Of a DNA stretch of 32,535 nucleotides, positions 6,950 through 32,535 are shown in pieces; positions within the stretch are counted from its first letter, which is position 1; the number at the start of each line of letters is the position of its first letter. The translations under genes and the position numbers were made by a program. This DNA is from an uncultured Polyangiaceae bacterium (GTDB lineage: Bacteria; Myxococcota_A; Polyangia; Polyangiales; Polyangiaceae). The notes beneath the pieces are model-generated. The model saw nothing but the letters and a program-made list of their open reading frames with translations, ran no database searches and had not been told where the DNA came from. The stretch is taken from positions 1 to 32,535 of the forward strand of contig CAYTRQ010000008.1 of NCBI GenBank assembly GCA_964440025.1. Reading direction: 5' to 3'.

Positions 6950-7465
6950 ATGAGTCTCATGGACACGAGTCACTTTGCAGACGGTGTGACGGCCCCAGTC
7001 TGCCAGCCGTTCCCTTTTCAGCTCGCCGCGGTCACGGTCGATCTCGACAAGAGCGTCCTCATTCAGATGGCGATGTTTTCGGTACTGATTGTGGTGCTGA
7101 AACCGTTGCTGTTCGATCCGATGTTGCGTGTGTTCGCGCTGCGGGAGGAACGGACCGATGGCGCCAAGGCGGAGGCTCGCGCCATGCAGGAGCGAGCGGC
7201 GGACATCCTGGCCAACTACGAGGCGCAGCTTGCCGAGGTGCGTGCTCAGGCAGCGGCAGAGCGCGAAGTCCTGAGGAAAGAAACCGCTCAGCTTGAAGCT
7301 TCGATTTTAGCGGAAGCACGCTCGGCTGCGGACGTGATCGTCTCGGAAGGACGCGAGCGTATCGACAAAGAGGTCAGCGAGCTCAATGCGGAGCTCGAAA
7401 GCCGCGAAGCCGAGCTTTCCGCGCGCATTGGAAGTCGTGTTTTGGGGAGGGAGCTTTCCTCATGA
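6950..7465 (+). CDS. F0F1 ATP synthase subunit b' (B/B' family)
   Basis: Internal ATG 6950 lies about 10 nt downstream of a GGAG. There is one TM helix (VLIQMAMFSVLIVVLKPLLF) followed by a long Ala/Glu/Arg helical stalk. The stop overlaps the next start (ATGA at 7462-7465). Confidence 0.8.
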   Translation: MSLMDTSHFADGVTAPVCQPFPFQLAAVTVDLDKSVLIQMAMFSVLIVVLKPLLFDPMLRVFALREERTDGAKAEARAMQERAADILANYEAQLAEVRAQAAAEREVLRKETAQLEASILAEARSAADVIVSEGRERIDKEVSELNAELESREAELSARIGSRVLGRELSS

Positions 7466-8942: not shown

Positions 8943-9021
8943 GCCCCTAACAATTTCACTGGTTCTCGAAGCAGATAGAATCGGGAGCCCAAACTCAGTC
9001 TTGCTAGAAAAACACGAGTGA

Positions 9022-10707
<1,686 letters not shown>

Positions 10708-10724
10708 TCGAGAAGTATCCAATT

Positions 10725-11633
10725 ATGGCCAATCAGAAGGAAATCCGGACGCGCATCGGCAGTGTGAAGAACACACAAAAGATCACGCGTGCCATGAAGA
10801 TGGTGGCTGGTGCTCGGCTCAATCGTGCGCAGAATCGGATTCAGGCGCTCCGTCCCTATGCAGTGGAAACGGCCCAGGTTCTTCACGATGTCGTAGGGGA
10901 TGCCAAAACTGATGAGCAGTTGGCTGAAGAGGAGCTGCATCCACTGCTTGCGCGCCGCGAGGAGAAGCGGGTCATCTATCTCGTTTTGACCAGCGATCGA
11001 GGCCTCTGTGGAGCATTCAACTCGACGATCCTCCGGCGCGCGGAAGCCATGTGGAAGGAAGCCGAGGCGGCGGGCAAGGAGGTTCAGCTCTATCTCATCG
11101 GCCGCAAGGGACGGGACTACTTTCAACGTCGCCGGGCGCCGATTGGTGAGATCTTTGCTGGAGTTTGGGACGATCTCGGGCTCGAACAAGCGAGGCGAGT
11201 GGCGCGTGGAGTGTTGAAGCCATTCGTCGATGGGGAGGTCGACTCGATTTATCTCGTCTACAATGAATTCAAGAGCGCGATGACCCAGAGGGTCGTTGCG
11301 GAGCCACTTTTTCCCCTCGCCGAACGTGTTGTGGAAGGCGAGGATCGGGCGTCCGATGCTCCACCAGTTCATCTCGATTTCACGTTCGAGCCGGATCGGG
11401 ACTCCCTTCTCGAGGTACTCGTTCCGATGTACATCGAGGTCACGCTTTTGCGTGCGCTTTACGAATCGATGGCTTCGGAGCTAGGGGCTCGGATGACGGC
11501 CATGGATTCGGCGACCAAGAATGCAAGCGATATGATCGATTCATTGACGCTGCAGTACAATCGAGCCAGGCAAGCCGCGATCACCACCGAGCTCATGGAA
11601 ATCATCGGCGGTGCGGAGGCGCTCGGAAGCTGA
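10725..11633 (+). CDS. atpG: F0F1 ATP synthase subunit gamma
   Basis: MANQKEIRTRIGSVKNTQKITRAMKMVAGARL at the N-terminus and ARQAAITTELMEIIGGAEAL at the C-terminus. Confidence 0.95.
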   Translation: MANQKEIRTRIGSVKNTQKITRAMKMVAGARLNRAQNRIQALRPYAVETAQVLHDVVGDAKTDEQLAEEELHPLLARREEKRVIYLVLTSDRGLCGAFNSTILRRAEAMWKEAEAAGKEVQLYLIGRKGRDYFQRRRAPIGEIFAGVWDDLGLEQARRVARGVLKPFVDGEVDSIYLVYNEFKSAMTQRVVAEPLFPLAERVVEGEDRASDAPPVHLDFTFEPDRDSLLEVLVPMYIEVTLLRALYESMASELGARMTAMDSATKNASDMIDSLTLQYNRARQAAITTELMEIIGGAEALGS

Positions 11634-14625: not shown

Positions 14626-16472
14626 TGTGCGGCATCGTTGGCTATGTCGGCGGGCGCAGTGCAGCCCATGTGCTTTTGGATGGCCTTCGTCGCTTGGAGT
14701 ATCGCGGCTACGATTCTGCAGGTCTCGCCGTCCATCACGGAGACTCACTCACCGTTGTTCGTGCCGTAGGTAAACTGGACAACTTGGCCCAAGCGATTGG
14801 GATCAAGGAGCTCCCAGGAAGCATGGGCATCGGTCACACTCGTTGGGCCACCCATGGCCGTCCAAGTGAGTCCAACGCCCATCCGCATCGTGCGGGCCCC
14901 ATTGCCGTTGTTCACAATGGAATCCTCGAGAATCATCTCGAGCTGAAGCTTCAGCTACAGCGGGACGGGATCGAGTTTTCGAGCGATACGGACACGGAAA
15001 TCGCGGCGCACTTGATTCATCGCGCGCTCGAAGAGATTCCTGATCTCCATGGTGCAAGAGCTCTCGTCGAAGCCGTTCGTCGAGCTCTGAGGCAGGTTCG
15101 AGGTGCCTATGCCCTGGCCGTCGTCAGTGAGGAAGTGCCGGATCGGGTCGTCGTGGCGAAGAACGCCTCGCCGCTCGTGATAGGAATGGGCCACGGCGAG
15201 AACCTTTGTGCTTCCGATATTCCCGCGTTGCTCAACTACACTCGCGACATCCTCATCCTCGAGGATGGGGAAATGGCGGAGATTTCACCGGAGGCGGTTC
15301 ATGTCGAGACCCTGGAGGGAGACCGGGTTGAACGCAGCCCGCGCAGAATCGACTGGAGCCCCGTTCAGGCCGAAAAAGGGGGCTTCAAGCACTTCATGCT
15401 CAAGGAGATCTTCGAGCAGCCACGCGCCATCGAAGACACTCTCAGGGGACGAATCGATCTTGAAGCGGGGGATTTAATTGAAGCGGATCTAGGACTCAGT
15501 CCGGAGCTGATCGAGAGGACTCGGCGGCTCTACTTCGTGGCGTGCGGCACAAGCTATCACGCCAGCTTGGCCGGGGTGCATTTCGCGGAGCGGTTGGCGA
15601 AAATCCCGGCGCGATGTGAACTGGCCAGTGAAGTGCGTTGCAGGCAGCCCGTCTTTGGTCCTGAGGATCTCGTTGTCGCGGTGAGCCAGTCTGGCGAGAC
15701 GGCCGACACCCTTGCGGCGCTGCGTGAAGCCAAGGCCCAGGGGGCCAACGTTTTGGCGCTGACGAACGTTTTGGACAGTGCCATTGCTCGAGCCGCGCAC
15801 GGGGCTCTCTATACCCACGCTGGGCCAGAAGTGGGCGTGGCGTCGACCAAGGCGTTTACGACCCAGCTTGTCGCCATGCTCATGCTTGCCGTTTATCTTG
15901 GTCGTCGTCGAGGGCATCTCTCTCGAGAGAGAGGTCGACAAGTCTTGCAAGCTCTCATTGGGCTTCCGGGCGATTTGCGGAAAGTCCTCCAGCGCGCGGA
16001 CGAGGTGTTGGCGGTGGCTCGGCGTTGGCATCATGCTCAACACATGCTGTTCTTGGGGCGCGGATTGGGATATCCCATTGCCCTCGAAGGGGCTCTGAAG
16101 CTCAAGGAAATCAGCTACGCTCATGCGGAGGGCTATGCTGCGGGGGAGATGAAACACGGCCCGATCGCGCTCATCGATGAGACGATGCCTGTTGTGGTGA
16201 TCGTGCCCCAGGACGCTCACTATGAGAAAACGCAGTCGAATCTTCAGGAGGTTCGAGCTCGAGAGGGGCGGGTGATTGCCGTACTGACCGAGGGGGATGA
16301 TTCCATCGGCCAATATACGTCCGACTTGCTGTTCGTTCCGGCGGTGGCTGAATGGGTTCTTCCGATGGTCACCTGTCTTCCGCTCCAGCTGCTTGCTTAC
16401 CATGTGGCCGATTTGAAGGGGACCGATGTCGACCAGCCACGAAATTTGGCGAAGACGGTCACGGTGGAGTGA
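14625..16472 (+). CDS. glmS: glutamine--fructose-6-phosphate aminotransferase (isomerizing)
   Basis: MCGIVGY N-terminal nucleophile, GHTRWATHG, two SIS domains and C-terminal PRNLAKTVTVE. The ATG overlaps the glgA stop (TGATG). Confidence 0.97.
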   Translation: MCGIVGYVGGRSAAHVLLDGLRRLEYRGYDSAGLAVHHGDSLTVVRAVGKLDNLAQAIGIKELPGSMGIGHTRWATHGRPSESNAHPHRAGPIAVVHNGILENHLELKLQLQRDGIEFSSDTDTEIAAHLIHRALEEIPDLHGARALVEAVRRALRQVRGAYALAVVSEEVPDRVVVAKNASPLVIGMGHGENLCASDIPALLNYTRDILILEDGEMAEISPEAVHVETLEGDRVERSPRRIDWSPVQAEKGGFKHFMLKEIFEQPRAIEDTLRGRIDLEAGDLIEADLGLSPELIERTRRLYFVACGTSYHASLAGVHFAERLAKIPARCELASEVRCRQPVFGPEDLVVAVSQSGETADTLAALREAKAQGANVLALTNVLDSAIARAAHGALYTHAGPEVGVASTKAFTTQLVAMLMLAVYLGRRRGHLSRERGRQVLQALIGLPGDLRKVLQRADEVLAVARRWHHAQHMLFLGRGLGYPIALEGALKLKEISYAHAEGYAAGEMKHGPIALIDETMPVVVIVPQDAHYEKTQSNLQEVRAREGRVIAVLTEGDDSIGQYTSDLLFVPAVAEWVLPMVTCLPLQLLAYHVADLKGTDVDQPRNLAKTVTVE

Positions 16473-16547
16473 AGGGCTACGGAGCGGAGCGAGCAGCCTC
16501 CGGAGCTACCTTGACACGATAGCCGCTTGAGTGCTCTTGCAGAGGAT

Positions 16548-17321
16548 ATGTCTGCACGTGGATTGTCTGCATTGCCTTTAGTGGTGACGTTCGCCCTCAG
16601 TTGTTCCGGTTCGAATCAGGAGGCGCCCGCTTCGCCCGAGGATGCTCAAGCTGAGGGGGAAGTCGAAGAGACGTCAGGACAATCCGACCCGGTCGAGGAA
16701 GCCTCGCCCGAGGAGGAAGAGACGAGTCAAGGGATCCCCACGGAGTGTCATGATGGGACGGATCCCTGTACGGCCGATCCCAAATGGGTCAAGAAGGTCT
16801 GCCAGGACGTCTACCCAGCGGTGGCTCTTTATCTTTTCCAGCCAGATGTCCCATTCACCAAGGCTTATCTGAGTCGGAAGACGAGGGCGGTCAATGCTTC
16901 CGGAGGGGTGACGAGCGGGGAGGAATGGCTCCAGTTTGACGAGCAGGTCGTCCTCCTCGTTCACCGAGAAGCGAGTACTGGAGGCATGCAGGTGAGCGGG
17001 GCTCAAGGTGGTTTCGATGCCATGCGTTGGGACGGCTCCTGCGTCACTCTCGGCGCTAATGAAGTGCGTACGCAGGTCCCTCCCGATCCCATCCACGCGC
17101 ACGTTCCTTGGCGCTACCTCGGCGATGATATTCAGGATGCTTTGAAGGACGTGGAGTCCGTGAAAGAAGCCTACATCACTCGCAAGCAGGAGTGCAGGGG
17201 AGTCTATAGTGGCAGTGTGAGCAAGAAGTGTGTGCGGGCTGACGAAGCTCTCAATGAAGAAATCGTTCGCGCCGTTCAAGAAGGTGAAGTGGACTTGCCG
17301 GTTCCCGAAAACCGCCCGTAA
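16548..17321 (+). CDS. hypothetical Cys-containing lipoprotein
   Basis: ATG 16548 opens MSARGLSALPLVVTFALSCSGSN (signal peptide with LSC lipobox). An acidic low-complexity linker follows, then a globular part with 8 Cys. The ORF track opens at TTG 16527. Confidence 0.65.
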   Translation: MSARGLSALPLVVTFALSCSGSNQEAPASPEDAQAEGEVEETSGQSDPVEEASPEEEETSQGIPTECHDGTDPCTADPKWVKKVCQDVYPAVALYLFQPDVPFTKAYLSRKTRAVNASGGVTSGEEWLQFDEQVVLLVHREASTGGMQVSGAQGGFDAMRWDGSCVTLGANEVRTQVPPDPIHAHVPWRYLGDDIQDALKDVESVKEAYITRKQECRGVYSGSVSKKCVRADEALNEEIVRAVQEGEVDLPVPENRP

Positions 17322-17351
17322 ATGATCGAGCGCGGTTGTTGAACAGTCCTT

Positions 17352-17375
17352 GCACCTCCCTTTGGGTTGAGGTGC
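17352..17375. terminator. 7-bp stem hairpin between convergent genes (possible weak bidirectional terminator)
   Basis: GCACCTC-CCTTTGGGTT-GAGGTGC sits between the lipoprotein stop (17321) and the MMPL stop (17383). There is no real U-tract. Its 5' flank and loop resemble the 6034-6075 hairpin. Confidence 0.3.
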
Positions 17376-17382
17376 TTGCCGG

Positions 17383-19998
17383 CTAAGCCGTGGACGGCTG
17401 TTTTTGCCCGTCCACGTTGGTGTCATGGGTGGGCTCCCCGGGGCCTGGACTGGCTTTGTCCATCTTCCAGGCCATCCACGCTGGCATGATTAGCACAGCC
17501 GTAGCCACACAGGTGACCTCGCTGATCGCCATGGCAATACCGAAGGAATTGAGAGCCCGATTGCTGCTCGTGTAGAGCGAAACATAGCCAATGATGGTGG
17601 TCAGCGAGCAGAGGACGACGGCTCCTCCGGTTCGCTGAACCGCCTCTCGCAGTGCTCGGCGAGCATCGGAGAGTCGCCGCTCTTCCACGATATAGCGCAC
17701 GATCACATTGATTCCGTAATCCGCGCCATTCCCGAACGTGATGGGAAACGCGACGAAATTGAGAAAGTTCAGGCGAATGCGGAGGCCTGCCATGGCGCCG
17801 GCCATCCATAGAATGCCTCCAAGGAGGGCGGAGAGTGTCAGGAAGCGGTGACGCCAACTTCGGAGGCTGACGAGGAGAAGAACGATTGTCGCCGTGAGTG
17901 CTGCAAGGATGGCCTGGGGGCCTTCGGTGGCGAGGGAGTCCAGAATGTCAGCGAAGACGAGGGCATTTCCGGTACTTGGAGGTCGCTTGCCATCGATGTC
18001 GATGGCGCGAACGGCTTGGGCCCATTCCACCCAATAGCGGCCATCCCAGTTGTTCCGGTCCAGGTGATGTTCGGAAAAAACGAGGCGGCCGACCGTCCCA
18101 TCTCGTTCCGTAAACGTTTGTCGGACCTCCTCGGGGAGATCCTCGTCGCCCACGGGGCTGATGTCCTTGGGCGGAATGTGTGGTTCGAGTTCCTCTTTTT
18201 CCTCTTCGCTCGCAAACTTCTTTGCTCGCAGGAGATCTTCCCGGAGCTGCTCGATGATGGGGATTTTTTCCTTTTGGTTGTCGGGAATGAGCGATTCGAT
18301 CGAACGGATCGGACCGAGAACTCTGGGGTTCTTTTCCGCGTAGGCTTCGAGCTGAGCGACGACTTCGGGAGTGTCGGCTCGCGTCGGGGACAAAATGGCA
18401 ATCGCGCTTCCCGTTTTCGTCTCGCTGACGATTTCGCCCTGTCGGTCATTGACCCATTGGATACGGCTATCGGGTTTCCGTTCCGAGGTGAGCTTCCGGA
18501 AGTCGTATTCGATCGGATTGGCTTGGATAGCGAGCCCCACGCCGATGACGGAAAAGACGGTCAGGACCGCCCCGACCGCCACGGACGTTTTGGGGCGAGA
18601 AAAAGCAAGCCAGGCGAAGAATCGGCCGTAGGGATTGCGTTTGAGCTGGGCAAGTCGCCTGGGGCGCAGTGGCGCGAGTCGTTCACTGGACAGCACGATG
18701 GTGGGAAGGAGTGTAAAGGCACTGATCCAGCACAGGGCCATACCGATCCCGCCAATGATCCCGAAGTCTCGGAAGCCTCGAAAATCGGTGATCGCCAGCG
18801 ACGCGTAAGCCAAACCTGCGGCCAGAGATGCGACGAGGGTGGCGGACCAGGTGGCAGCATGGGTCGTTCGGATAGCGGCCTCGTGTTCGTAGCCGCCGAG
18901 ACGTTCTTCGAAATACCGGGCCAGCCAGATGACATTGGGGTTGATCCCGTTGCCAATGACGATGCTCATCAAAAACGCCGTGGAGGTATTGAGGAACCCG
19001 ACGGTCAGTTGCGCTGCCGCGAAAGTGACGGCCACGGGCGGGATAATACACAGCCCCAAGACTGGCACTGCTCGCCAAGATCGGAAGAACAGATAAACGA
19101 CAAGCATGACTGCCAGTAGAGTTGCTCCACCGGCGAAGGCCATTTGTCGCGCCAACATCTTGGTTTCGATGTAGACGTCCATCAGATCCCCTCCGTAGTC
19201 GACCTGGGCGGAGGCGAGCTCGGGATCCTTTCTGATTTCGGCGAGATGGCCTTCGATCCGTTCGATCAAGGCATCGACCTGGCTCAACTGATTGCTCGTG
19301 ATGTCGGTTCTCAGGAAGATGATCGCGAGCGGTAGCTCCGGATGAGCGAACAGGCCCCGCTCGTAGTCGGGCAGATCGGCCTGTGCTTTCTCAGCCTCTT
19401 TCTCGACTCGTTCCTTGAGCTCTTCAATCGTAGGAGGCTCTTCGACATCGAGCCCTTCGTCGAGTCCCAGATCGAAGGGGCTTTGGTGCTCGGCTTCCCA
19501 CTCGACGCGGGCGTGCAGATCTTGCTGGAACTCTTTGAGAAAGTCTTTGTCGGCGTAGAGATACTTGTGCTTTTTTGCGAACTGCTGGAAATCCTTGATT
19601 CCCCAATCGACGGTGGTCAGCGCTGGATCGTTGGATGCTTCCAGTCGCTTGGCGAGCCGTTTGGTCGCTTCGAACGCCTTGTCGCGGTCCTCGGCTTGGA
19701 CGGCGAGGCTCATTGTGCTGGCGACTCCGAAGCGATCGACGAGCTGTTTCAGATCCACGACGCTCGGGGCCGTTTCCGGTAACAGCGCTTCGAAAGAGGC
19801 GTCCAGTTTCAACCGAGAGGCGATGGGGATCGCTACGACGGTCAGCAATAGCGCTATGATGAGAAACCATTTGGTCTGTCTCACCTGAGCGCGCGCGAGC
19901 TTGGACATCAGCTGTCCAAACCAATTGCGGGGCACCTCCACATGGGTGGGAGGCGTGAGTGGTGGGTCGGATTCAGGTTGGCTCATAGGCTTCGACAA
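17383..19998 (-). CDS. MMPL/RND-superfamily (COG1033-like) membrane exporter
   Basis: 871 aa. Two blocks of about 6 TM helices are each preceded by a large soluble loop, which is the typical MMPL/HpnN-like architecture. The start overlaps the 3' end of the upstream aminotransferase gene by 26 nt (or 14 nt from the second ATG). Confidence 0.85.
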   Translation of the reverse strand: MSKPMSQPESDPPLTPPTHVEVPRNWFGQLMSKLARAQVRQTKWFLIIALLLTVVAIPIASRLKLDASFEALLPETAPSVVDLKQLVDRFGVASTMSLAVQAEDRDKAFEATKRLAKRLEASNDPALTTVDWGIKDFQQFAKKHKYLYADKDFLKEFQQDLHARVEWEAEHQSPFDLGLDEGLDVEEPPTIEELKERVEKEAEKAQADLPDYERGLFAHPELPLAIIFLRTDITSNQLSQVDALIERIEGHLAEIRKDPELASAQVDYGGDLMDVYIETKMLARQMAFAGGATLLAVMLVVYLFFRSWRAVPVLGLCIIPPVAVTFAAAQLTVGFLNTSTAFLMSIVIGNGINPNVIWLARYFEERLGGYEHEAAIRTTHAATWSATLVASLAAGLAYASLAITDFRGFRDFGIIGGIGMALCWISAFTLLPTIVLSSERLAPLRPRRLAQLKRNPYGRFFAWLAFSRPKTSVAVGAVLTVFSVIGVGLAIQANPIEYDFRKLTSERKPDSRIQWVNDRQGEIVSETKTGSAIAILSPTRADTPEVVAQLEAYAEKNPRVLGPIRSIESLIPDNQKEKIPIIEQLREDLLRAKKFASEEEKEELEPHIPPKDISPVGDEDLPEEVRQTFTERDGTVGRLVFSEHHLDRNNWDGRYWVEWAQAVRAIDIDGKRPPSTGNALVFADILDSLATEGPQAILAALTATIVLLLVSLRSWRHRFLTLSALLGGILWMAGAMAGLRIRLNFLNFVAFPITFGNGADYGINVIVRYIVEERRLSDARRALREAVQRTGGAVVLCSLTTIIGYVSLYTSSNRALNSFGIAMAISEVTCVATAVLIMPAWMAWKMDKASPGPGEPTHDTNVDGQKQPSTA

Positions 19999-21283
19999 TG
20001 GCGCGGCGGTGAGGCCAGAGTTCTTCGAGCGCTTGTGCGTAAGTGTTCACCAGTTCGGCGTCTTGGGCGATCAAGGGGCAAGATTGGGAAAAGAGAACCA
20101 GCGAGGAATCCAAAAGCCTTTGCGTGCGCGGAAAATCCGATCGGTAGTTGTTGCGGATCCTTTCGGGCAGATCTTCCCGCTGGGAGAAAACTGCCTGTGC
20201 TGTTTGGCTGGTTTGTTCCCAAAGCGTCACTTCGAAACCGGTTGCCTTCATGGCCGAGACCAGAGCGTCGCGGACCCGGGTGGGCTCGAAGTCGGCGAGT
20301 CCGGCTTTTTCACGGTCGATAGAGATGCGATACTTGTGAAACACGGAGGTCCGCTCCGGAGGGATGGTGGGGGCGGTCAGACCGTCGAGCTGGGCGATGC
20401 ACCCACCGAGTCGCGAGGCATTTTCCTGGCATTCTTTGGTTCGTGCGGGGAGCTTTTCGAGTTGCGTTCGAGCAAACGCGGCCATCATCTCGTTGCCTCG
20501 AAACATTCCCCCAGGACGCTGACTGGTCAGGGAACGCCAACCATCCAGGGGGCGATGCTGGGGCATCCGCGCCGCATCGAAGAGCGAAAGGTCCTGCCCG
20601 AAATTGCGGACGGAGTTGGCAACTTCGGTTTGTTCCAAAGAGTTGCTGACGAAGACTCCTCCTTCGCCGCAGCCGAGATTTTTACTCGATTGCAGAGAGA
20701 ACCCACCTCCGTCTGCTTGAGCTCCGACGGGCCGACCCTGGTAGGTTGCGCCATGAGCTTGAGCCGCGTCTTCCACCAGGCTGGCGCCTATCCGGTGAGC
20801 GATTTGGCCCAGCTCATGAAGGTCGGCGGGACAGCCGTGCACGTGAACCGGCATGATTGCTTTGGTATTCTTTCCAATCCACCTTTCCACCTCTGCCGGT
20901 AGAAGGAGTCCCGTGCTGCTATCCACGTCAGCGAAGATGGGCTGTCCTCCACAAGCCATCACTGCCAGGGGAGTTGCAACGAAAGTGTAGCTGGGAACGA
21001 TGACTTCATCACCAGGCTGGACGCCGGCTGCTGCCAACGCCACGATGAGCGCGCTCGTGCCGGAATGGGTGAGAAGTGCATGTTTGGCTCCCACGAAGTC
21101 CGCGAACTCTTCCTGGAAAGCCATGGCTTCTGGCGCGAAAGGACCGGAGAGGATGCCGCGATCGAGAACTCGCATGACGGCCCGCTTCGAGTCTTCACAG
21201 ACAATCGGCCAAAGCCGATGACGGGCTTGGTTGATGAGAGTGCGGGGACCGTTGGGGCCCAGAAGAGCAGGGGGAAGAGACAT
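19973..21283 (-). CDS. DegT/DnrJ/EryC1/StrS-family PLP-dependent aminotransferase
   Basis: HSGTSALIVALAAAGVQPGDEVIVPSYTFVAT, MPVHVHGCPADL, VEDAAQAHGATYQGRPVG, FSLQSSKNLGCGEGG (PLP-lysine motif). At 436 aa it is longer than typical NDP-sugar aminotransferases. Confidence 0.9.
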   Translation of the reverse strand: MSLPPALLGPNGPRTLINQARHRLWPIVCEDSKRAVMRVLDRGILSGPFAPEAMAFQEEFADFVGAKHALLTHSGTSALIVALAAAGVQPGDEVIVPSYTFVATPLAVMACGGQPIFADVDSSTGLLLPAEVERWIGKNTKAIMPVHVHGCPADLHELGQIAHRIGASLVEDAAQAHGATYQGRPVGAQADGGGFSLQSSKNLGCGEGGVFVSNSLEQTEVANSVRNFGQDLSLFDAARMPQHRPLDGWRSLTSQRPGGMFRGNEMMAAFARTQLEKLPARTKECQENASRLGGCIAQLDGLTAPTIPPERTSVFHKYRISIDREKAGLADFEPTRVRDALVSAMKATGFEVTLWEQTSQTAQAVFSQREDLPERIRNNYRSDFPRTQRLLDSSLVLFSQSCPLIAQDAELVNTYAQALEELWPHRRAIVEAYEPT

Positions 21284-21530
21284 GAAGGCGTCAATGATCA
21301 GGAGGGGCGTCAGCTTCTTTGGGCGCCCACGAGGTGGTAGAAGCCATCTCGGCTCCCTTCAAGTGCTCGGGAGAGCCCCCTTTCTTACTGAGATGGCGGC
21401 TCCTCGTCCCGGTCGAGGTAGTCGTGAGCTGGCGTTTCAGCCCTTGCTGAGCCGGGTAGAGGCCCCGCTGCCCCGCACTGCTCTTCTGCCGTGGCGCTCG
21501 AGCGAGGGGATTGGCGAAGAAAGCAGTAAG

Positions 21531-22820
21531 TTACACCTCGCGCCGGGCTTGAGCAGCTCCCAATTGGGCTGCACCGCCGTTGGTGGCGGGAGAACGGGCT
21601 TGAGCTGCAGCTTGTCGTGCAGCAACCTCGCGTGCCCAGTCGTAGAGCATTCGCTCCTGCTGGAAAAGATCGTGAATGGGCTCCTCCCCATCGGCCACGT
21701 AGGGGGATTTGAAGTAGATGCTCATTTGACGTTGGATCCCCTTTTCGCCGTTTTCCTGGGCGACATCGAGGACGCGGACCATGTCGATGCACAAGGGGGC
21801 AGCCAAGATGGAGTCCTTGCAGAGGAAGTTGATTTTCATCTGCATGGGTTCGCCACAAAACCCCTGGACATCGATATTGTCCCAGGCCTCTTTCGCGTCT
21901 CCACGCGGCTTGTAGTAGTGGATGTGAACTTGGTGATTGTCTACGGTGTGGCCGACCACGCTATCGAGCACGCTCGCCTTGGAGCGTACCTTGGTCTCGT
22001 TGCTCCTCGGATCGTCGAGAACCAGGCCATCATTGTTGCCGAGGAAATTGACCGAATACCAGCCATCGACCCAAAGGCGACGGAGGCGCAACATGGAAGC
22101 CATCGCCGTCTTGACTAGGGTCTGGCCCGTTTTGCCGTCCATTCCAGCGTAGGGCACGCCGTTGTTCTCTGCCTGAATTCTGAGAGCCGGGATATTAGCT
22201 AGACTGGGTGCGAAATTGGCGTGGGGCATTCCCAGGCTATTCGCGGAGTAAACGTAGCGCATCGTTGGAGAGATCCCGCTATCGTTCTGATCGAGGCCCC
22301 GCTCGAACGCCTCGAGTGTTTGATGCACGGGGCCACGATCCATCCACTTTTCCGTGGATCCAAGATTGACCAGCACGACGCGGCGGAGTCCCGCGTTCTT
22401 CTGGAATTCGGTCATGTCGTGCTTGATGGCCTCGATTTGGCCTCGGTGCCCTCCGGTGGCACCCACGACGTGAAGTCCCTCGAGATTCTTGGCGTACTCC
22501 TTCGAAAAGACCGCTGGCCAGGGACGGAGGGAGGATAGTTCTTCTTTGACCGGTGCGAGTTGATCCGCACGAAAGACTCCGTGACGGAGAGCAGCGTCGT
22601 ACACCGACTCGTCGTTGAGATCCCAACCACCAAAGACAATGTCCTCGAGCTTCGCGAACTGCAGAATGTCCGTGAGCTTTTCTGCACGAAAACTATCGTC
22701 TGGCTCGGTCAGCATGGCCCTGCGCGGGGCTAAGCCCTTCTTCATGAGAGCCACGCCCGCGACGAGCGTCGAGGCAACCGCCCCATTTAATCCAATGATG
22801 ACTACACCTAGGCGTCCCAT
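21531..22820 (-). CDS. ino1: inositol-3-phosphate synthase (MIPS family)
   Basis: GVVIIGLNGAVASTLVAG (NAD fold), LVNLGSTE, GMDGKTGQTLVKT, SKASVLDSVVG, FLCKDSILAAP. The internal ATG 22820 is directly preceded by GAGGAA. The ORF track opens further upstream at 22901. Confidence 0.9.
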   Translation of the reverse strand: MGRLGVVIIGLNGAVASTLVAGVALMKKGLAPRRAMLTEPDDSFRAEKLTDILQFAKLEDIVFGGWDLNDESVYDAALRHGVFRADQLAPVKEELSSLRPWPAVFSKEYAKNLEGLHVVGATGGHRGQIEAIKHDMTEFQKNAGLRRVVLVNLGSTEKWMDRGPVHQTLEAFERGLDQNDSGISPTMRYVYSANSLGMPHANFAPSLANIPALRIQAENNGVPYAGMDGKTGQTLVKTAMASMLRLRRLWVDGWYSVNFLGNNDGLVLDDPRSNETKVRSKASVLDSVVGHTVDNHQVHIHYYKPRGDAKEAWDNIDVQGFCGEPMQMKINFLCKDSILAAPLCIDMVRVLDVAQENGEKGIQRQMSIYFKSPYVADGEEPIHDLFQQERMLYDWAREVAARQAAAQARSPATNGGAAQLGAAQARREV

Positions 22821-23005
22821 ATGTTCCTCGTGTGGCGCGAAACTAGCTCGAAACCCGGAAACCGCAATGCTGTTTCGCTCTCTCTGATTCAGGGCGAGCA
22901 ACCCGGCGAAATCGTGAGATGAGCCTGCGACCTTGTCTTCGCACTTTCCTTAATTGAACCAATGCGTTTTGAAAAATAGAACCAACAGAGAGACGGGCTC
23001 CGCTC

Positions 23006-24508
23006 TTAGCCCGCCAAGGTGGACGAGCCACCATAACTTTGAAGAATGTCACGACGCGAGTCGTCGACGATTCGGGGAAATTTGCTTTGGACGCTGGTGT
23101 TTCCTATGTCCTTCATGAATCGGGCCACCGAGCCTTTTGGTAAGACGACGAACTGAGGAGGGAGAATGGCGGTATTGTCCGTGCGGTGTTCGCGGTACAC
23201 TCGATTTCTCTCGCAAAGGGCTCGATCGAATGTACGGATGAACTCCGTTTCATCTTTTGGCCTTTCAGAGAATTCAGCGAAAAGCACGTAACGTGACTTG
23301 GCTGATCCGTCCACCCCTACAACCGCCCCCGCGGTGTAGTCCACCGCGATCCCTCCCGATTGTTCAAGAGCTGCCTGGACCGCCTCTTGGATTTCCACGT
23401 GAGTCGTGAGCTCCTGAGTCGTTGAGAGGCAGCCGGAAAGGCGGCCAGCGAATTCGATGCGGTGAGGGGCAACACTTCGAAATCGTACGAGATCTCCGAG
23501 TAGGTAGGCGTAGAGACCAGCGACTGTGGTGACGACGATAGCGTAGATCCGGTCCTTCTCGACCTCCCAAAGAGGAAGCCGCGTAGGTCTTTTTGCATCA
23601 ACCTCTTCGACCGGGACGAACTCGAAATAGGTGCCCCGGTGGGGAAGCATCAGCATGCCGGGGCCGGGATGGCCATGATCGGTTGACGCGTAGATGCCAC
23701 CTTCCGTTGCGTTGTAGGTATCGACGAGCGGAATCTCACGACCGACTCGCTCGCGAATCACGTCGAGATAGGGGGCTGCCGCGACGCCGCCTCCGACCAA
23801 CACGGTGAGATGGGGCCAGAGATCGGTCACCACTTTGGCGCGACGTCCTCGAGCGCGCGCGCGCTCCAGAAGCTTGTCAAAGAGAAGGGAAAACCAACAC
23901 GTCGTTCCACTAATGACTCTCACGTCATGATTGAGGTACCTGTCTGCAATCATGGTGAGCTTCTCATCATAATCGGAGATGCGCAGGATGTCTTCTTCCG
24001 GGAGAAAGAAGAGCCGGCTCGGTTTGGGCAAGGTCGCCACCATCAAGGCAGGATTGGAGGTGATCTTGACCGGGCCCTCTTGTTTCATCGTGATCGGTGG
24101 AAAAAGCCCAAGGCTGAACCCCCGCGTAAAATCTCGGCATCCGTGATGGCGCAGAAATCGAAAGAGTGCGTCGCTTCCGGAGGCTCGTTGAAGTTTGATT
24201 TGGAGATCGTTGATGGGGAGGAACTTGGGCTTGCCACCCGTGGAGCTGCCGGACGAGTTGCCGAAATACTCGACGAATTCGGGAACGAGCAGGCCCGTTT
24301 CGCCGTTCTTCATTCTCTCGATGTAGGGTGAGAAGCTGTCGTAGTCTCCAATGGGGACCGCGAGCCGGAAGTCGACTTCGTTTTTTATGTCGGAAAAGCT
24401 GTGGGAACGGCCAAACTCGGTGTGCTTGCAGCGTTCGACGATTTTCTTGAGTTGCCTCAGCTGTGTCTCGCGCACGTTGGCGAGTGAGTGATCCCAACGC
24501 GTGACCAT
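23006..24508 (-). CDS. GH3 (auxin-responsive promoter) family acyl-acid amido synthetase-like protein
   Basis: FGNSSGSSTGGKPKFLP (GH3 adenylation motif), TYNATEG, YLLGDLVRF, C-terminal KFPRIV. The likely start is the second ATG (MVTRWDHSLANV, 24508 by frame arithmetic). The ORF maximum is ATG 24589. Confidence 0.85.
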   Translation of the reverse strand: MVTRWDHSLANVRETQLRQLKKIVERCKHTEFGRSHSFSDIKNEVDFRLAVPIGDYDSFSPYIERMKNGETGLLVPEFVEYFGNSSGSSTGGKPKFLPINDLQIKLQRASGSDALFRFLRHHGCRDFTRGFSLGLFPPITMKQEGPVKITSNPALMVATLPKPSRLFFLPEEDILRISDYDEKLTMIADRYLNHDVRVISGTTCWFSLLFDKLLERARARGRRAKVVTDLWPHLTVLVGGGVAAAPYLDVIRERVGREIPLVDTYNATEGGIYASTDHGHPGPGMLMLPHRGTYFEFVPVEEVDAKRPTRLPLWEVEKDRIYAIVVTTVAGLYAYLLGDLVRFRSVAPHRIEFAGRLSGCLSTTQELTTHVEIQEAVQAALEQSGGIAVDYTAGAVVGVDGSAKSRYVLFAEFSERPKDETEFIRTFDRALCERNRVYREHRTDNTAILPPQFVVLPKGSVARFMKDIGNTSVQSKFPRIVDDSRRDILQSYGGSSTLAG

Positions 24509-24895
24509 TGCTCTTGCTGAAAGAGACAGTGCGCGGTCGGAACCCCGGGGAAGCGAGGTGTGAATCAGCGGAGAGGAGCGGGCCGACATGAGTGAACGGA
24601 AGCAGTCGGGACCGAGAAACTCGCAGTTGGAGTCGGCCCCGGCCGCCTGGTGTACAAGCAGTTCACGAGATCACAAGGGCATCCGGCGGGGAAGGAGGAG
24701 TAATGTTTGCGCTGGGGCGGAGAGGATTTCGCTGAATCGACGGAGAAAAGAGCGGAACGACAAGCCACTCGCGGGCCCCATCCTTTCCGCCGTGCAAGCT
24801 GCTACGCAGCGACGAGCCCGGGAGAAATCCGCTGTCGGTGTGGAGGAAAACTCAGATTTCGGTGATGCTGGATACTCCGACAAAGGGATGTCTCG

Positions 24896-26026
24896 GTGGA
24901 GGAGTGGCTCGAACTCCTCCCGAATCGCTTGAGGACCGAATTGCCCCGAACGGGATCACCGCTAAAACCCCGCGACCTCGTGATTCCGCCACCACGCCAG
25001 TTCTCCGTATCGCCAACGGGCATTTGGGGGGTCGTTCGTCGATTCGTTGTTCGCTGGGGGCGTCTCATCCTTTTCGCGGTCGGAGTCGCGGCCATTGTTT
25101 TGCTCGTGCGCTCAGCGGGAGTTCATGCCGTTTGGACCACGCTCTGGGAGGCCGCGCCGTGGCTCCCGCTGATTTTCGCCCTGGAGCTCACTTGGGTCGC
25201 CGTCGAAGGCGTGGGGCTGCTCGTTCTCTACGGTCATCATATCCGCTCGATTCCAGCACGGACCATCGCTGCTGCGATGCTCGTGCATTTCACGACGATG
25301 ATGGTGCTTCCGGTTGGACGTGCTGGGGCTGAAGTGGCGCGCGCGACCATGTTCTCGGCTCACGTGGGTGCGGCACGGGCGACCGCAGCAGCATCCTTGA
25401 TGCAGTCCCTCACCCTCGTTGCCAATACAATCGTCAGCTTGTTGTGTGCTTGGTTTGTCCTCACAGCCTCCGGGGGGATCGAGCTTTCACTTCTCCTCGT
25501 CATCAATGGAGCCGCAACCCTCGCTCTGGGAGGAGGCATGTATTTGGTCATGCGTCACGCCAGGTTCGGAGGATTTCTTGGAAGAAAATTCAAAAAGATG
25601 GCTCACGTGGGTCCGGAGATCGACGTGCACTACCGGGAAAGCCGCCGGCGTCATTTCCCCGCGTTCCTGTTTTGTCTTGCGGCGCGACTCGTCCAGACAT
25701 TGCAGTACGGGTTGATTTTACTGGCGGTGGTCGGGAGTTTCCGTTTCGTGGGGATGTTTTTGGCCCAGGGGATTCACCTTGTCGGAGCGGGGCTGGGGGA
25801 CATCGTACCCAATCAGGTGGGGGTGACCGAAGGTGCCTATCGGCTGTTCGCGCCGGTTCTTGGGCTTTCTGGTGAACCGGACAAGGCGGTGAGCATTGCC
25901 TTGCTGGCGCGGATTTCCACGCTCTCCGTGGCGGGGCTCTGTGCTCTCGTGCTTCAGGGTATTCCTGGAGCAGGGCGCTTCGCGCGAAGATCCGGCTCTG
26001 TTCAGGACGGGCCTTTCGGTTCATGA
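24896..26026 (+). CDS. UPF0104 / lysylphosphatidylglycerol-synthase-TM-region (flippase-like, PF03706-like) membrane protein
   Basis: Polytopic membrane protein. LPVGRAGAEVARAT and PNQVGVTEGAYRLF match the two conserved loops I recall for the MprF-flippase/HpnL-type family. GTG start; the N-terminal ~45 aa are uncertain. Confidence 0.7.
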   Translation: MEEWLELLPNRLRTELPRTGSPLKPRDLVIPPPRQFSVSPTGIWGVVRRFVVRWGRLILFAVGVAAIVLLVRSAGVHAVWTTLWEAAPWLPLIFALELTWVAVEGVGLLVLYGHHIRSIPARTIAAAMLVHFTTMMVLPVGRAGAEVARATMFSAHVGAARATAAASLMQSLTLVANTIVSLLCAWFVLTASGGIELSLLLVINGAATLALGGGMYLVMRHARFGGFLGRKFKKMAHVGPEIDVHYRESRRRHFPAFLFCLAARLVQTLQYGLILLAVVGSFRFVGMFLAQGIHLVGAGLGDIVPNQVGVTEGAYRLFAPVLGLSGEPDKAVSIALLARISTLSVAGLCALVLQGIPGAGRFARRSGSVQDGPFGS

Positions 26027-27513
26027 TAGGTCTTCGCCGCATGGATGCCGAGAACGAGGTCACGGAGCGTGTTCGGTCAGCGCGGGAAGCGGGCGCCGAC
26101 TGGTCACGACTCGATGTCGACGAGCGATTTGGAATTCTCAAAGCTGCGGCGAAACGTTTGCTCCGTGAGCGAGATGATATCGTCTCGATCGTCCAGAAGG
26201 AGCTGGGAAAGGTCCGCGCCGATGCTCTGTTCACCGAAGGACTGGGGCCTTTGGACGCGGTGACTGGATGGATGAGAGTTGTCGAGCAGAGTGTCTCTGG
26301 GAAGGTTTCGCTCAATCGCGTTGCCTTTCCCCAAAAGAGCGCTCGTGTCGAGCTCATCCCCCGCGGCGTGGTTGGCATTATCGCACCATGGAACTTTCCA
26401 GTAGCCGGCCTCTATCGCAGTGTATTTCCGGCGCTCCTTCTTGGAAACAGCGTGGTTGTCAAAGCGAGCGAGCACTCGCCAAGGAGCAGCGGTTGGTTTT
26501 TGAACATTCTGGCTGAAGAACTTCCAGCGGGTGTCGTGCAAATGCTTTCGGGAGACGGGCGCGTGGGGCAAATGCTGCTTCAAGAAGACATCGACGCCTG
26601 TGTCTTCACCGGATCGAGCCGGGTGGGACGAGAAGTCGAGGAAACCTGTCGCGCACGAGGCATAGCTTGTTCCGCCGAGATGGGCGGAAACGATGCGGCT
26701 GTCGTTTTCGACGATGCGGACTTGCCTCGCACGGTGGCTGGCCTGACTCATTGGGCATTGCAAAACGCAGGACAGGCCTGCGGCGCGCTCGAGGTCGTTT
26801 ACGTAGATAGCCGCGTCGAGGCGGAGCTCGTCGAGCGCCTCACGGACGCATTTCGCCGTCTGAACACGGAAGGTTACCGCGACAGGACGCTGGCTCCTCT
26901 TGCGCTGAACTCCCAATTCGAATTGGTGAAAAGCCAGATCGAAGATGCCGTCACTCGAGGTGCTACTGTCGAAACTGGGGGAAAGTCCGAGGGACTTTGG
27001 CTCGAGCCGACGCTCCTCAGTGGTTGCAATGAATCGATGCAGGTTGTTTCTGAGGAAACCTTTGGTCCGGTTCTTCCGGTGGTAGCCGTGGATGGCCCGA
27101 GCGATGCGATTCGTCGCGTCAATCGCGGTAAGTATGGGCTGACCTGCTCTCTGTGGACTCAGGATCTCGAGCGAGCGCGAAATCTGGCTCGGAGCATCGA
27201 CGTCGGGACGGTGACGGTCAACAATCACGCATTCACTGGCGCCATTCCGGATCTGCCCTGGAGTGGGCGTCGCAGTTCCGGACGTGGAATCGCGAACAGC
27301 GCTTGGTCGCTGCTCACTTTTGCCCGGCCCCAGACCGTTGTCGTCGACTACGGAAGTGGACCGGAACCGTTCTGGGCGCCGTTTGACGACAAGCTGGAGC
27401 GCCTGGGCAACCTCCTTGCGGACGCTCAACTTGGACGGATCACTCAGGCCTACCAGATCCCTCTTTTACTCCAAGCGCGGCGAAAGGTGGTTAAGGCGTT
27501 CTTTGGGATGTAG
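26023..27513 (+). CDS. NAD(P)-dependent aldehyde dehydrogenase
   Basis: IIAPWNFP, VVVKASEHSP, FTGSSRVG, EMGGNDAAVV, catalytic Cys in NAGQACGALE, EETFGPVLPV. The ATG overlaps the stop of the upstream membrane protein (ATGA). Confidence 0.92.
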   Translation: MIGLRRMDAENEVTERVRSAREAGADWSRLDVDERFGILKAAAKRLLRERDDIVSIVQKELGKVRADALFTEGLGPLDAVTGWMRVVEQSVSGKVSLNRVAFPQKSARVELIPRGVVGIIAPWNFPVAGLYRSVFPALLLGNSVVVKASEHSPRSSGWFLNILAEELPAGVVQMLSGDGRVGQMLLQEDIDACVFTGSSRVGREVEETCRARGIACSAEMGGNDAAVVFDDADLPRTVAGLTHWALQNAGQACGALEVVYVDSRVEAELVERLTDAFRRLNTEGYRDRTLAPLALNSQFELVKSQIEDAVTRGATVETGGKSEGLWLEPTLLSGCNESMQVVSEETFGPVLPVVAVDGPSDAIRRVNRGKYGLTCSLWTQDLERARNLARSIDVGTVTVNNHAFTGAIPDLPWSGRRSSGRGIANSAWSLLTFARPQTVVVDYGSGPEPFWAPFDDKLERLGNLLADAQLGRITQAYQIPLLLQARRKVVKAFFGM

Positions 27514-29513: not shown

Positions 29514-30821
29514 TCAAGAGCGCGTCAATTCGGTTTCAGCTAGGTCAAAGGACCGATGATCGGGCAGATTTCGAACGCCTGCGGCCACCACCCCGTGGGG
29601 CTCCAAGCTTCCGAGGACGCCGAGGTGCAAGCGGCGCGCTGTCCCCAGGAGGGAATGACGCAACGCCGAGCGAGGGGCCAGGGTGCCGTCGAGTTCGTGC
29701 AGCTTCTGTTCCGTCGTTCGGCCTGCCGCGACGAATGTCAGGATCGCGTCGAAGTTGCCCGAGGCTTGTTTTCGGGCCAGCTCATCCCTTCCTCGAGGAG
29801 AAACAGTGATCTGGCGTTGCCGAGCGGACCAGACCCGCGCGATTTCCGCAGCGATCGCAGCGAGCCAGGGCTGGTCTCTGTCCACGAGGATCTGCAAAGG
29901 GGGGCCTGGCCAGGTGCCAGCGCGATTTTGAAGCAGGGGGGCAACCCCCAAAGATCGGAACCCTTGGGGCGGAAGTCGACTGAGTTGCTCGGTGAGAACT
30001 CCAGGTGCGGCGAAGCTCTTCAGATCTGTGCCTGGCAGGAGCACGAGCCAACCGAGCGACTCGAGAGAAAATCGCGTGCCCCCTTTGCGAAACTCGTGAA
30101 GTCCCGCACCCAAAAAGCCAATATGGCTGCGTCCCGTCTCGAAATCGCGGAGGCAATCATGGAGGTTGCGTTTTTGGCATCGCACTTCGTCGACGTAGCT
30201 TCCTCCGCGAGGAGCCCAGGGGTTTCTTGCAAGTTGAGAGATCGTTCCACCGCTTGGGAAAAGAGCGCCCGTCGTATCGGGCGCCTCGGGGTTGAATGAG
30301 GGGGGCACGAGAGCCGTCTCTGGCGCTGACAAAAGGCGAGCGATCTGTTCGGGACTCAGGTGGGTTCGGCATTCCAGGCGAGTTTTTCCCCGTGCCCTGA
30401 GTCGATTGAGCTGAGTCAGCGGTTGGTAAGTCCTGCTGGCCCTCTCGAGCGACCCAGCTATGGCGCTCGCGTCGAGCGGGCGGCCTCGAGCGCTTCGCAG
30501 GCCCGGGCGCAACTCGATGGTGATCCAAGGAGGACGGCTTTGGGGAAGCGCCGCAGCCAGAGTCGGGTAAACGACTCCACGCTGCGTTTGAGCAAACAGT
30601 GGCTCGAAGAGGGAAGGTCCAATCAGAGCGGCGAGGAGATCATGAGGATCATGGGGGTCAATCCTCGTGATGCCGACCGGCATCGAGAGCTGGAGGCGTC
30701 CCCCATAGCTGGGCCTCGCCAGAGCGTTGGCGTAGCTCGGACGAAATAATGGCGAGGCTCCAGCGAGGGCACCGAGCAGGGCCGTTCTCCGGGAGATGGG
30801 AAGAACACGGCAGGCGGCCAC
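29514..30821 (-). CDS. Tat-signal periplasmic protein, ABC substrate-binding protein family-5-like (orphan)
   Basis: Twin-arginine signal ISRRTALLGALAGASPLF...ANA. GGRLQLSMPVGITRIDPHDPHD...PSLFEPLF...YPTLAAALP...ITIELRPGLRSARGRPLDA follows the family-5 SBP N-lobe pattern. The likely GTG start at 30821 overlaps the upstream stop by 1 nt (TAGTG). The ORF maximum is ATG 30893. Confidence 0.6.
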   Translation of the reverse strand: MAACRVLPISRRTALLGALAGASPLFRPSYANALARPSYGGRLQLSMPVGITRIDPHDPHDLLAALIGPSLFEPLFAQTQRGVVYPTLAAALPQSRPPWITIELRPGLRSARGRPLDASAIAGSLERASRTYQPLTQLNRLRARGKTRLECRTHLSPEQIARLLSAPETALVPPSFNPEAPDTTGALFPSGGTISQLARNPWAPRGGSYVDEVRCQKRNLHDCLRDFETGRSHIGFLGAGLHEFRKGGTRFSLESLGWLVLLPGTDLKSFAAPGVLTEQLSRLPPQGFRSLGVAPLLQNRAGTWPGPPLQILVDRDQPWLAAIAAEIARVWSARQRQITVSPRGRDELARKQASGNFDAILTFVAAGRTTEQKLHELDGTLAPRSALRHSLLGTARRLHLGVLGSLEPHGVVAAGVRNLPDHRSFDLAETELTRS

Positions 30822-32257: not shown

Positions 32258-32535
32258 TTTTATCCAACTCGACGACCTTGAGACCGAGCTTTTCGAGCCC
32301 ACCAGAGATCTTGTCGTAGTCGCCGGCGATGACCACCCGGTAGTCGTCCGGCTGACAATAGGGTTGGGCCGCTTGGCGCGCCTCGATGAGATCGACGGAA
32401 TGGACTTGATCGGGCCAGGTGGTCCAGAAATCCGCAGGTCTCCCATGAATGGGCAGGGAAGCGAGCTTCCTCCCCAGGGTGTCGACGTGGGAGAATTCCA
32501 TCGGATAGCCAAGAAGGAGGCCACGGACAGCCTCC
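32211..32535 (-). CDS. M16 (insulinase/pitrilysin) family peptidase, C-terminal fragment (5' end outside window)
   Basis: The open frame runs off the window edge. ...DFWTTWPDQVHSVDLIEARQAAQPYCQPDDYRVVIAGDYDKISGGLEKLGLKVVELDKNG is the typical C-terminal tail of M16 peptidase domains. Confidence 0.5.
   Translation of the reverse strand, partial: EAVRGLLLGYPMEFSHVDTLGRKLASLPIHGRPADFWTTWPDQVHSVDLIEARQAAQPYCQPDDYRVVIAGDYDKISGGLEKLGLKVVELDKNGLPLSQEKPKQAAK

Follow-up and report, generated by a model that had tools for sequence, protein, structure and literature searches.

A conserved, modular GH3–MIPS–DegT gene cluster of Polyangia that may make an amide-linked aminocyclitol lipid for the cell envelope

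The stretch of DNA analysed here, 32,535 nt long and called the window throughout (contig CAYTRQ010000008.1 of assembly GCA_964440025.1, G+C about 59%), comes from an uncultured Polyangiaceae bacterium of soil, and its nearest relatives are metagenome-assembled genomes (MAGs) labelled Polyangiaceae or Polyangiales. On its minus strand lie four co-directional genes encoding a GH3-family amido synthetase, a myo-inositol-3-phosphate synthase (MIPS), a DegT-family aminotransferase and an MMPL-type RND transporter, for which an original prediction from the sequence alone had proposed a joint pathway to an exported inosamine amide (Table 1). All four open reading frames (ORFs) stand at the positions first assigned to them, and in profile searches with PF03321, PF07994/PF01658, PF01041 and PF03176 every domain scored above its cut-off; Pfam calls were judged against the curated gathering scores and NCBIfam models against their own cut-offs. 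Hydrophobic-segment prediction makes GH3, MIPS and DegT soluble, and MMPL and the divergently encoded PF03706 protein polytopic. Of the junctions originally described, the 247-nt gap between MIPS and DegT is exact and the 185-nt gap between GH3 and MIPS holds for a MIPS start at ATG 22820 (104 nt for TTG 22901), but the 26-nt overlap of DegT and MMPL exists only for a start at TTG 19998: ATG 19986 gives an overlap of 14 nt and ATG 19908 a gap of 64 nt, and homology favours none of the three. ATG 22820 is almost certainly the true start of MIPS, because solved MIPS structures align from this codon onward and GAGGA, a Shine-Dalgarno sequence, stands before it.

Table 1. Genes and sequence elements of the cluster and its divergent side, in window coordinates.
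Feature	Position	Strand	Domains and remarks
GH3-family acyl-acid amido synthetase, 527 aa	23006-24589	minus	PF03321, PF23571, PF23572
Myo-inositol-3-phosphate synthase (MIPS), 429 aa from ATG 22820	21531-22820	minus	PF07994, PF01658
MIPS ORF with first start TTG	21531-22901	minus	Longest ORF
DegT/DnrJ/EryC1/StrS pyridoxal-phosphate (PLP) aminotransferase, 436 aa	19973-21283	minus	PF01041
MMPL/HAE3-type RND transporter, 871 aa	17383-19998	minus	PF03176; start ambiguous (19998, 19986, 19908)
PF03706 polytopic membrane protein (LPG_synthase_TM/MprF-flippase-like, HpnL-like)	24896-26026	plus	Divergent from GH3
Aldehyde dehydrogenase (ALDH)	26023-27513	plus	PF00171, E 9e-105; 4-nt overlap with the PF03706 gene stop
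GMC-family FAD oxidoreductase, 645 aa	27532-29469	minus	PF00732, PF05199; convergent with ALDH
GC-rich hairpin over the GH3 stop codon, then T-rich tract	22992-23015	minus	Putative; terminator-like site
Conserved 22-nt block TAGTTTCGCGCCACACGAGGAA, including the Shine-Dalgarno sequence, just 5' of the MIPS start	22824-22845	minus	From the alignment of relatives

Conservation was surveyed by aligning 14 GH3 orthologues and then scanning one genome per GTDB species, which yielded 80 loci, nearly all from Polyangia MAGs; 85 loci were examined in total. Neighbours were detected by tblastn with the window proteins and by an unbiased all-against-all clustering of ORFs, and the denominators of the neighbour counts, which differ gene by gene, are informative loci only. 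MIPS adjoins GH3 in 61 of 70 loci and DegT does so in 55 of 65, and the collinear one-strand order GH3>MIPS>DegT is found in 52 of 65 loci from the 80 species-level genomes, an arrangement far beyond chance. The co-conservation on which the original prediction had staked its pathway is borne out for these three genes. A fortuitous adjacency of four unrelated functions might appeal to the 185-nt and 247-nt gaps and the terminator-like hairpin, which permit independent transcription, and to the unrelated housekeeping genes (GlmS, GlgA, GlgC, ATP synthase) on the flank, but the order is kept across these genomes while the flanks differ completely, and the neighbourhood statistics effectively refute it, leaving it next to no probability.

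The usual operon reads (IMPase) GH3 MIPS DegT PF03706 (MMPL) (MlaD), IMPase standing for a gene of the inositol monophosphatase family. In the Polyangiaceae variant, a divergent Omp85-like gene lies upstream and the IMPase gene follows PF03706 on the opposite strand; in the subclade of the window, to which loci L004, L005, L084 and L085 belong, the PF03706-ALDH pair has moved to the divergent side and is followed by the GMC gene. The synteny of L084 and L085 with the window runs from GMC to the ATP-synthase genes, and the cluster itself shows vertical conservation in two families.

The best-defined enzyme of the cluster is MIPS. It matches PF07994 with 218 bits (E 3e-64) and PF01658 with 115 bits (E 3e-33), its closest solved structure is Bacteroides thetaiotaomicron BT_1526 (7NWR, E 1e-90), followed at a distance by the Archaeoglobus fulgidus enzyme (1U1I, E 2e-51), and the residues aligned to A. 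fulgidus N255, L257, K274, K278, K306, D332 and K367 are all conserved; K274, K278, K306, K367 and D332 are the catalytic lysines and aspartate. On these grounds MIPS appears canonical. In its leader, all but 3 positions of the TAGTTTCGCGCCACACGAGGAA block are invariant in the window, L004, L005, L084 and L085, and the block is not found in the other 81 loci. A second block, GAAAGTGCG(A/T)AG..AA at 22930-22955 (minus strand), is common to the window, L084 and L085, while the surrounding intergenic DNA has diverged; the conserved blocks could represent an internal promoter or operator. A regulatory RNA in the gaps was considered and dropped: there is no Rfam match, and the GH3-MIPS leader folds like its shuffled versions (z = 0.04). 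A scan for sigma-70 promoters and terminators found promoter-like sites at chance level and defined no transcription units. In L003/L029 (11663-12864), MIPS appears as two pieces, the N-terminal 53 aa and a remainder of 325 aa; it is frameshifted, a pseudogene or misassembled.

GH3 scores 112 bits with PF03321, 63 with PF23571 and 58 with PF23572 (cut-off 23.6 each) and matches plant GH3 structures with E 4e-23. All 14 orthologues keep its adenylation motifs NSSGSS, YNATEGG and Y(x)LGDLVRF unchanged, and these align with those of plant GH3.8. The OlsH model NF052613 is matched over its full length with 242 bits, short of the equivalog cut-off of 620; GH3 is a distant relative of OlsH, its only curated bacterial relative. 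OlsH of Singulisphaera acidiphila, described in 2025 and the only characterised bacterial GH3, has been shown to use free fatty acid and ATP to make N-acyl ornithine (PMC12493201; reviewed in PMC12971839). By its domains and motifs, the GH3 of the window is predicted to be an ATP-dependent ligase that joins a carboxylic, probably fatty, acid to the amine of the pathway. One Sandaracinaceae MAG (JBHJHB01; L054 and L061) has two GH3 paralogues, of which one lies in a full IMPase-GH3-MIPS-DegT-PF03706-MMPL-MlaD cluster and the other stands alone, in a separate GH3 clade with L074 and L075.

What amine does this ligase receive? The neighbouring DegT (PF01041, 252 bits, E 2e-74) carries the catalytic-lysine motif FSLQSSKNLGCGEGG, and its Schiff-base lysine, in FSLQSSKNL, aligns with the lysine motifs of Fic25, DesV and a 2-deoxy-scyllo-inosose aminotransferase. 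Its placement rests on ranked scores of the single sequence and of a 21-sequence clade profile against PDB chains, used in place of a tree. Well ahead of all other solved structures is Fic25 (8GYH; 217 bits with the single sequence, 320 with the profile), an enzyme of ficellomycin biosynthesis whose substrate is an aliphatic amino acid bound to a carrier protein, on which it converts a ketone to an amine. Next in the profile ranking come Ser5 (231 bits), 7B0D (222) and the 2-deoxy-scyllo-inosose aminotransferases 5W71, 2C7T and 5W70 (214-218), and below them DesV (212), perosamine synthase (202) and ArnB (193); NtdA is a weak match. The original prediction had likened DegT to the inosose aminotransferases StsC, BtrR and MosB, a likeness that this ranking neither bears out nor contradicts, since cyclitol and NDP-sugar enzymes score alike in it. 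A place inside the NDP-hexose clade, the outcome that would have refuted the original prediction, is not seen: the models for NDP-hexose aminotransferases (ArnB, PseC, WecE, LegC, DesI, RfbH) give 107-170 bits against cut-offs of 375-650. Homology therefore appears to assign DegT neither to the inosose-aminotransferase subfamily nor to the NDP-hexose clade. The lysine-motif form FS(L/M)Q..K...GEGG shared by DegT, 5W70 and Fic25, where DesV and 7B0D have FSFYP.KNLG.GDGG, is a lead only. DegT is nevertheless predicted to make the amine of the pathway, an inosamine, because of the tight linkage of MIPS and DegT and not because of subfamily membership. An amino-group carrier protein, prompted by the match to Fic25, was sought and rejected: the 53-aa ORF between GH3 and MIPS in L003 is the N-terminus of the frameshifted MIPS, and the GH3-MIPS gap of the window holds no plausible small ORF.

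The gene found most constantly with GH3 is one that the original prediction had left out of its unit. The PF03706 protein (48.6 bits, cut-off 33.4; about 8 hydrophobic segments) adjoins GH3 in 57 of 63 loci, usually directly after DegT, and is predicted from the roles of its family to be a flippase. MMPL matches PF03176 with 115 bits (E 5e-33) in two stretches and has some 10-12 hydrophobic segments; the HpnN model TIGR03480 (223 bits, cut-off 752), NF052374 (139, cut-off 1100) and BstA (126, cut-off 1400) all stop short of their cut-offs. By analogy with its family, it is predicted to extract or export a lipid. An MMPL-type RND protein of any kind is present in 36 of 55 loci and a clear orthologue of the window's in 16 of 55, at 41-49% identity and in the same cluster position. 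The MMPL family is thus co-conserved, but it is the least constant of the four genes of the original prediction. In subclades, further envelope genes join the cluster: one for an MlaD/MCE protein in 16 loci and one for an Omp85-family barrel in 17. In L084, L085 and L005, a lipoprotein-like ORF stands directly after DegT, in L084 together with an FGE-sulfatase gene.

Eight loci have a short form that keeps only GH3-PF03706-MMPL, without MIPS and DegT, and their GH3 proteins fall into one clade of a neighbour-joining tree built without bootstrap. In four of the eight, a group-II PLP decarboxylase (PF00282, E 7e-81) follows directly after MMPL; it resembles diaminobutyrate decarboxylase, below the cut-off of that model. 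This suggests that the amine-supply cassettes, MIPS/DegT or PLP decarboxylase, are exchangeable on a common core of ligase, flippase and pump. Because the GH3 phylogeny tracks the module, GH3 probably consumes the amine made next door, for which this is the strongest indirect evidence. As to their surroundings, the short-form clusters L001, L002 and L017 have recurrent upstream neighbours of their own, in L001 and L002 a Lon protease and a YggT-like gene, and in L002 an FMO-like monooxygenase gene (15374-16999) follows MMPL.

The same short form can be read the other way. GH3 might make an ornithine-lipid-like N-acyl amino-acid or amine lipid from an amine of general metabolism, and the products of MIPS, IMPase and DegT might go into some other part of the envelope, for instance an inositol lipid head group or an amino sugar; the core would then stand without MIPS and DegT precisely as it does in these eight loci, and a shared destination in the membrane would explain the gene neighbourhood. 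The homology of DegT gives a cyclitol substrate no support, a myxobacterial ceramide phosphoinositol has been reported according to a citation in PMC9246714, and the PF03706-like BT_1521 is a neighbour of MIPS in Bacteroides inositol-lipid clusters. However, the cluster has no conserved CDP-alcohol phosphatidyltransferase, phosphatidylinositol phosphate (PIP) synthase, nucleotidyltransferase or glycosyltransferase that could attach inositol or an amino sugar to another molecule, and GH3 is the sole ligase present. Moreover, the GH3 phylogeny splits cleanly by the presence of MIPS and DegT, and half of the short forms carry an amine-making decarboxylase of their own. We therefore regard separate products as unlikely, if still deserving of a place in the discussion.

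We give about an even chance to the reading that the window holds one arrangement of a conserved modular Polyangia cluster that makes an amide-linked aminocyclitol lipid for the cell envelope. MIPS would cyclise glucose-6-phosphate to inositol-3-phosphate, a step with strong homology behind it; beyond this intermediate, we infer every step of the pathway. A phosphatase, part of the cluster in roughly one relative out of two and presumably encoded elsewhere in this genome, would release myo-inositol, which would be oxidised to an inosose by the linked GMC oxidoreductase or an unlinked dehydrogenase, both of them candidates. DegT would transaminate the inosose to an inosamine, as its linkage to MIPS suggests, and GH3 would adenylate a carboxylic acid, probably a fatty acid as in OlsH, and form the amide with the inosamine. 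As judged by family roles, the PF03706 protein would then flip the amphiphile across the inner membrane and the MMPL/RND protein would extract it toward the outer membrane, with MlaD and an Omp85-like barrel probably also taking part in relatives.

The original prediction had itself pointed to two gaps in the pathway, a phosphatase and an inositol dehydrogenase. The first is partly closed: an IMPase-family gene (PF00459, E 2e-59) lies inside the cluster in 27 of 58 relatives, and its product scores higher with the HisN model (171 bits) than with the IMPase model (121 bits), both below cut-off. The second remains, as no inositol dehydrogenase is conserved with the cluster, which turns the origin of the keto substrate into a biochemical question. 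The inositol dehydrogenase may simply be encoded elsewhere. The soluble GMC protein, a candidate for the oxidation step or for fatty-alcohol oxidation, has an N-terminal extension of about 150 aa, lacks any predicted signal peptide, transmembrane or hydrophobic segment, and finds only weak, generic GMC matches, also in the PDB; it is linked to the cluster in 15 of the 80 species loci, often directly upstream of GH3. ALDH is found near the cluster in 6 of the 80 species loci, is syntenic in L084 and L085, and may serve acid supply; GMC and ALDH together could instead oxidise a fatty alcohol to the acid that GH3 uses. Both are lineage-specific accessories. A further possibility, to which we give little credence, would do without an inositol dehydrogenase: in the manner of NtdC/NtdA/NtdB in kanosamine synthesis, DegT might take the MIPS intermediate myo-2-inosose-1-phosphate, or another phosphorylated inosose, with the HisN-like phosphatase acting last. 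The products would be a family of phosphorus-free outer-membrane aminolipids in Polyangia, assembled from interchangeable parts: an amine cassette, the GH3 ligase, the PF03706 flippase, and export by RND, MlaD and Omp85. The preference of the IMPase-family protein for the HisN model, whose substrate is a vicinal amino-phosphate, is a small hint that the phosphatase acts last.

Several observations weigh against an aminocyclitol lipid made and exported by this cluster. The gene map and Pfam searches reveal no IMPase gene in the window, and an inositol dehydrogenase of the Gfo/Idh/MocA family (PF01408) is neither present in the window nor conserved in the 85 loci; since GMC is linked in only about one fifth of the loci, no more than some lineages could use it as the oxidase. 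DegT is nearest to Fic25, with cyclitol and NDP-sugar enzymes scoring alike. Homology does not fix which acid and amine GH3 takes, given a score so far short of the OlsH cut-off. No OlsI-like alpha/beta-hydrolase O-acyltransferase is found among the conserved neighbours in the 85 loci, so the product would have one chain and be more a surfactant than a bilayer lipid. A terminator-like hairpin followed by a T-rich tract separates GH3 from MIPS, a possible terminator or attenuator. MMPL is not found in the closest syntenic relatives L084, L085 and L005, through recent loss in the relatives or re-insertion in the window, and because L084 and L085 are syntenic with the window, it is the most dispensable of the four genes. 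Finally, all carriers are uncultured MAGs, with no lipidome to compare. The inosamine-amide pathway with export thus keeps the support of co-conservation, a canonical MIPS, the OlsH precedent and a phosphatase in relatives, and it is weakened at the dehydrogenase, the DegT subfamily and the constancy of MMPL.

Aminocyclitol amides as such are not new: hygromycin A and the nabscessins (PMC11364655) are known examples, both soluble antibiotics made by unrelated amide-forming enzymes. Could the product of the cluster be a soluble amide of this style, made by GH3 from a non-lipid acid and released by RND efflux? That the known aminocyclitol amides are soluble (PMC10949010, PMC11364655) speaks for it, plant GH3 enzymes take small aromatic or jasmonate acids, and ALDH and GMC could tailor a small acid. 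Yet the constant partner of GH3 is no tailoring enzyme but a membrane protein of a lipid-flippase family, genes for lipid traffic (MlaD, Omp85-like) accompany the cluster, and polyketide synthase, non-ribosomal peptide synthetase, methyltransferase and glycosyltransferase tailoring genes are all missing from it. The vertical conservation across two families resembles a housekeeping envelope trait more than a sporadic biosynthetic gene cluster, and the sole characterised bacterial GH3 uses fatty acids. A soluble product is, in our view, quite improbable.

The unbiased clustering of neighbours also yielded no inositol dehydrogenase; the other recurrent families in it (M19-like dipeptidase, DAHP synthase, ThrRS, AcrAB-like) all reflect lineage synteny. 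In the window, the flank beyond MMPL holds a lipoprotein-like ORF, GlmS, GlgA, GlgC and ATP-synthase genes. A mycothiol-like link to the neighbouring GT4 and GlmS genes was rejected, the GT4 being a GlgA-type glycogen synthase (560 bits, cut-off 302) beside GlgC, and so was the inclusion of GlmS, GlgA and GlgC in the cluster, as they are syntenic only in L084 and L085 and not in the other 80 loci. The lipoprotein-like ORF (16527-17321, plus strand; 264 aa) has a lipobox-like N-terminus (FALSC), an acidic linker and no Pfam match, and is 61-68% conserved in L005, L084 and L085 in the same convergent position; the minus-strand ORF at 16674-17426 is its shadow. The atp operon is split: at 6704-11633 (plus strand), GlgC stands after ATP-synthase b, b', delta, alpha and gamma in the place of beta and epsilon, an arrangement that L084 and L085 share. 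In both b-type subunits a long N-terminal extension comes before the Pfam domain, which begins at residues 119 and 156. Further out, a 965-aa ORF without Pfam match (3153-6050, minus strand), either a gene or a high-GC shadow, overlaps the 3' end of a ClpB-like gene (514-3192, plus strand) by 40 nt. On the other side, upstream of GMC and on the same strand, two ORFs without Pfam match (29514-30893 and 30821-32524, minus strand) share 73 nt; L085 keeps both (43% and 38% identity), whereas in L084 two M16 peptidase genes stand in their place.

If the proposed product is real, the aminocyclitol would be a new head-group class among the amide-linked aminolipids of bacteria and the second substrate class for a bacterial GH3 after OlsH, and the synthesis of a lipid would be genetically tied to a dedicated export route of flippase, RND pump, MlaD and Omp85. 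The outer-membrane lipid composition of this bacterial order is unusual, as seen in Sorangium; here we predict an undescribed lipid class with its own export route, widespread in an under-studied order. A literature search, which was not exhaustive, found no paper on this gene combination or on an N-acyl inosamine lipid. The two amine cassettes, MIPS/DegT/IMPase and PLP decarboxylase, make the specificity of GH3 directly testable and offer parts for designer amide lipids.

Finally, we would like to place the cluster among known systems. Its two membrane families, an HAE3-type RND and a PF03706 protein, recur together in the hopanoid pair HpnN and HpnL, which is likewise encoded beside a lipid-biosynthesis operon, and the lipid that HpnN carries to the outer membrane is not a phospholipid. 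However, the scores with the hopanoid models lie far below their cut-offs (223 against 752 bits for HpnN, and a weak 28 against 196 for HpnL), and there are no hopanoid genes here, so the cargo must differ from hopanoids. The transmembrane domain PF03706 is also common to MprF, the lysyl-phosphatidylglycerol synthase and flippase, which is thought to flip an amine-bearing lipid; unlike MprF, the protein of the window stands alone with about 350 aa and lacks the C-terminal aminoacyl-phosphatidylglycerol synthase domain. With the NtdC/NtdA/NtdB kanosamine pathway of Bacillus subtilis, the likeness is one of logic only, that of the order MIPS, DegT, IMPase-family phosphatase in the reading without an inositol dehydrogenase: there, the DegT-family NtdA puts the amino group on a sugar phosphate at its keto group before the phosphatase takes the last step, while the dehydrogenase, the substrate and the phosphatase family differ from those of this cluster.

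The inositol-lipid cluster of Bacteroides thetaiotaomicron (BT_1521-BT_1526; PMC9246714) contains the closest solved MIPS, BT_1526, and the lysyl-phosphatidylglycerol-synthase-like BT_1521 is a neighbour of MIPS there as well. In contrast, it makes phosphatidylinositol and inositol sphingolipids through a PIP synthase and a PIP phosphatase, neither of which is found in the window cluster, whereas GH3 and DegT occur here and not there. For the amide-linked inosamine itself, the closest precedent is hygromycin A, in which Hyg18 (MIPS), Hyg25 (phosphatase), Hyg17 (myo-inositol dehydrogenase) and Hyg8 (aminotransferase) supply the amine (PMC10949010). A MIPS and an aminotransferase, joined in part of the Polyangia relatives by an IMPase-family phosphatase, are common to both systems, and in both the inosamine is made, or here predicted, to end up amide-linked to a carboxylic acid, but the Polyangia cluster has no PF01408 dehydrogenase and no methyltransferase or other tailoring genes, its amide ligase is a GH3 enzyme, and its context is a membrane flippase and an RND protein, not an actinomycete antibiotic gene cluster.

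This leads back to the ornithine-lipid pathway of OlsH and OlsI, in which the GH3-family OlsH uses ATP to couple free fatty acid to an amine and so gives an N-acyl amide lipid. The likeness lies in the GH3-family enzyme, with its full-length model match and retained adenylation motifs; the differences are that the match stays far under the cut-off, that the window lacks OlsI, that the predicted amine is an aminocyclitol from the adjacent MIPS and DegT and not ornithine, and that GH3 is accompanied by genes for a flippase-like protein and an RND pump. Each component thus comes from a known family, and the logic of the cluster extends the aminolipid paradigm that OlsH established.

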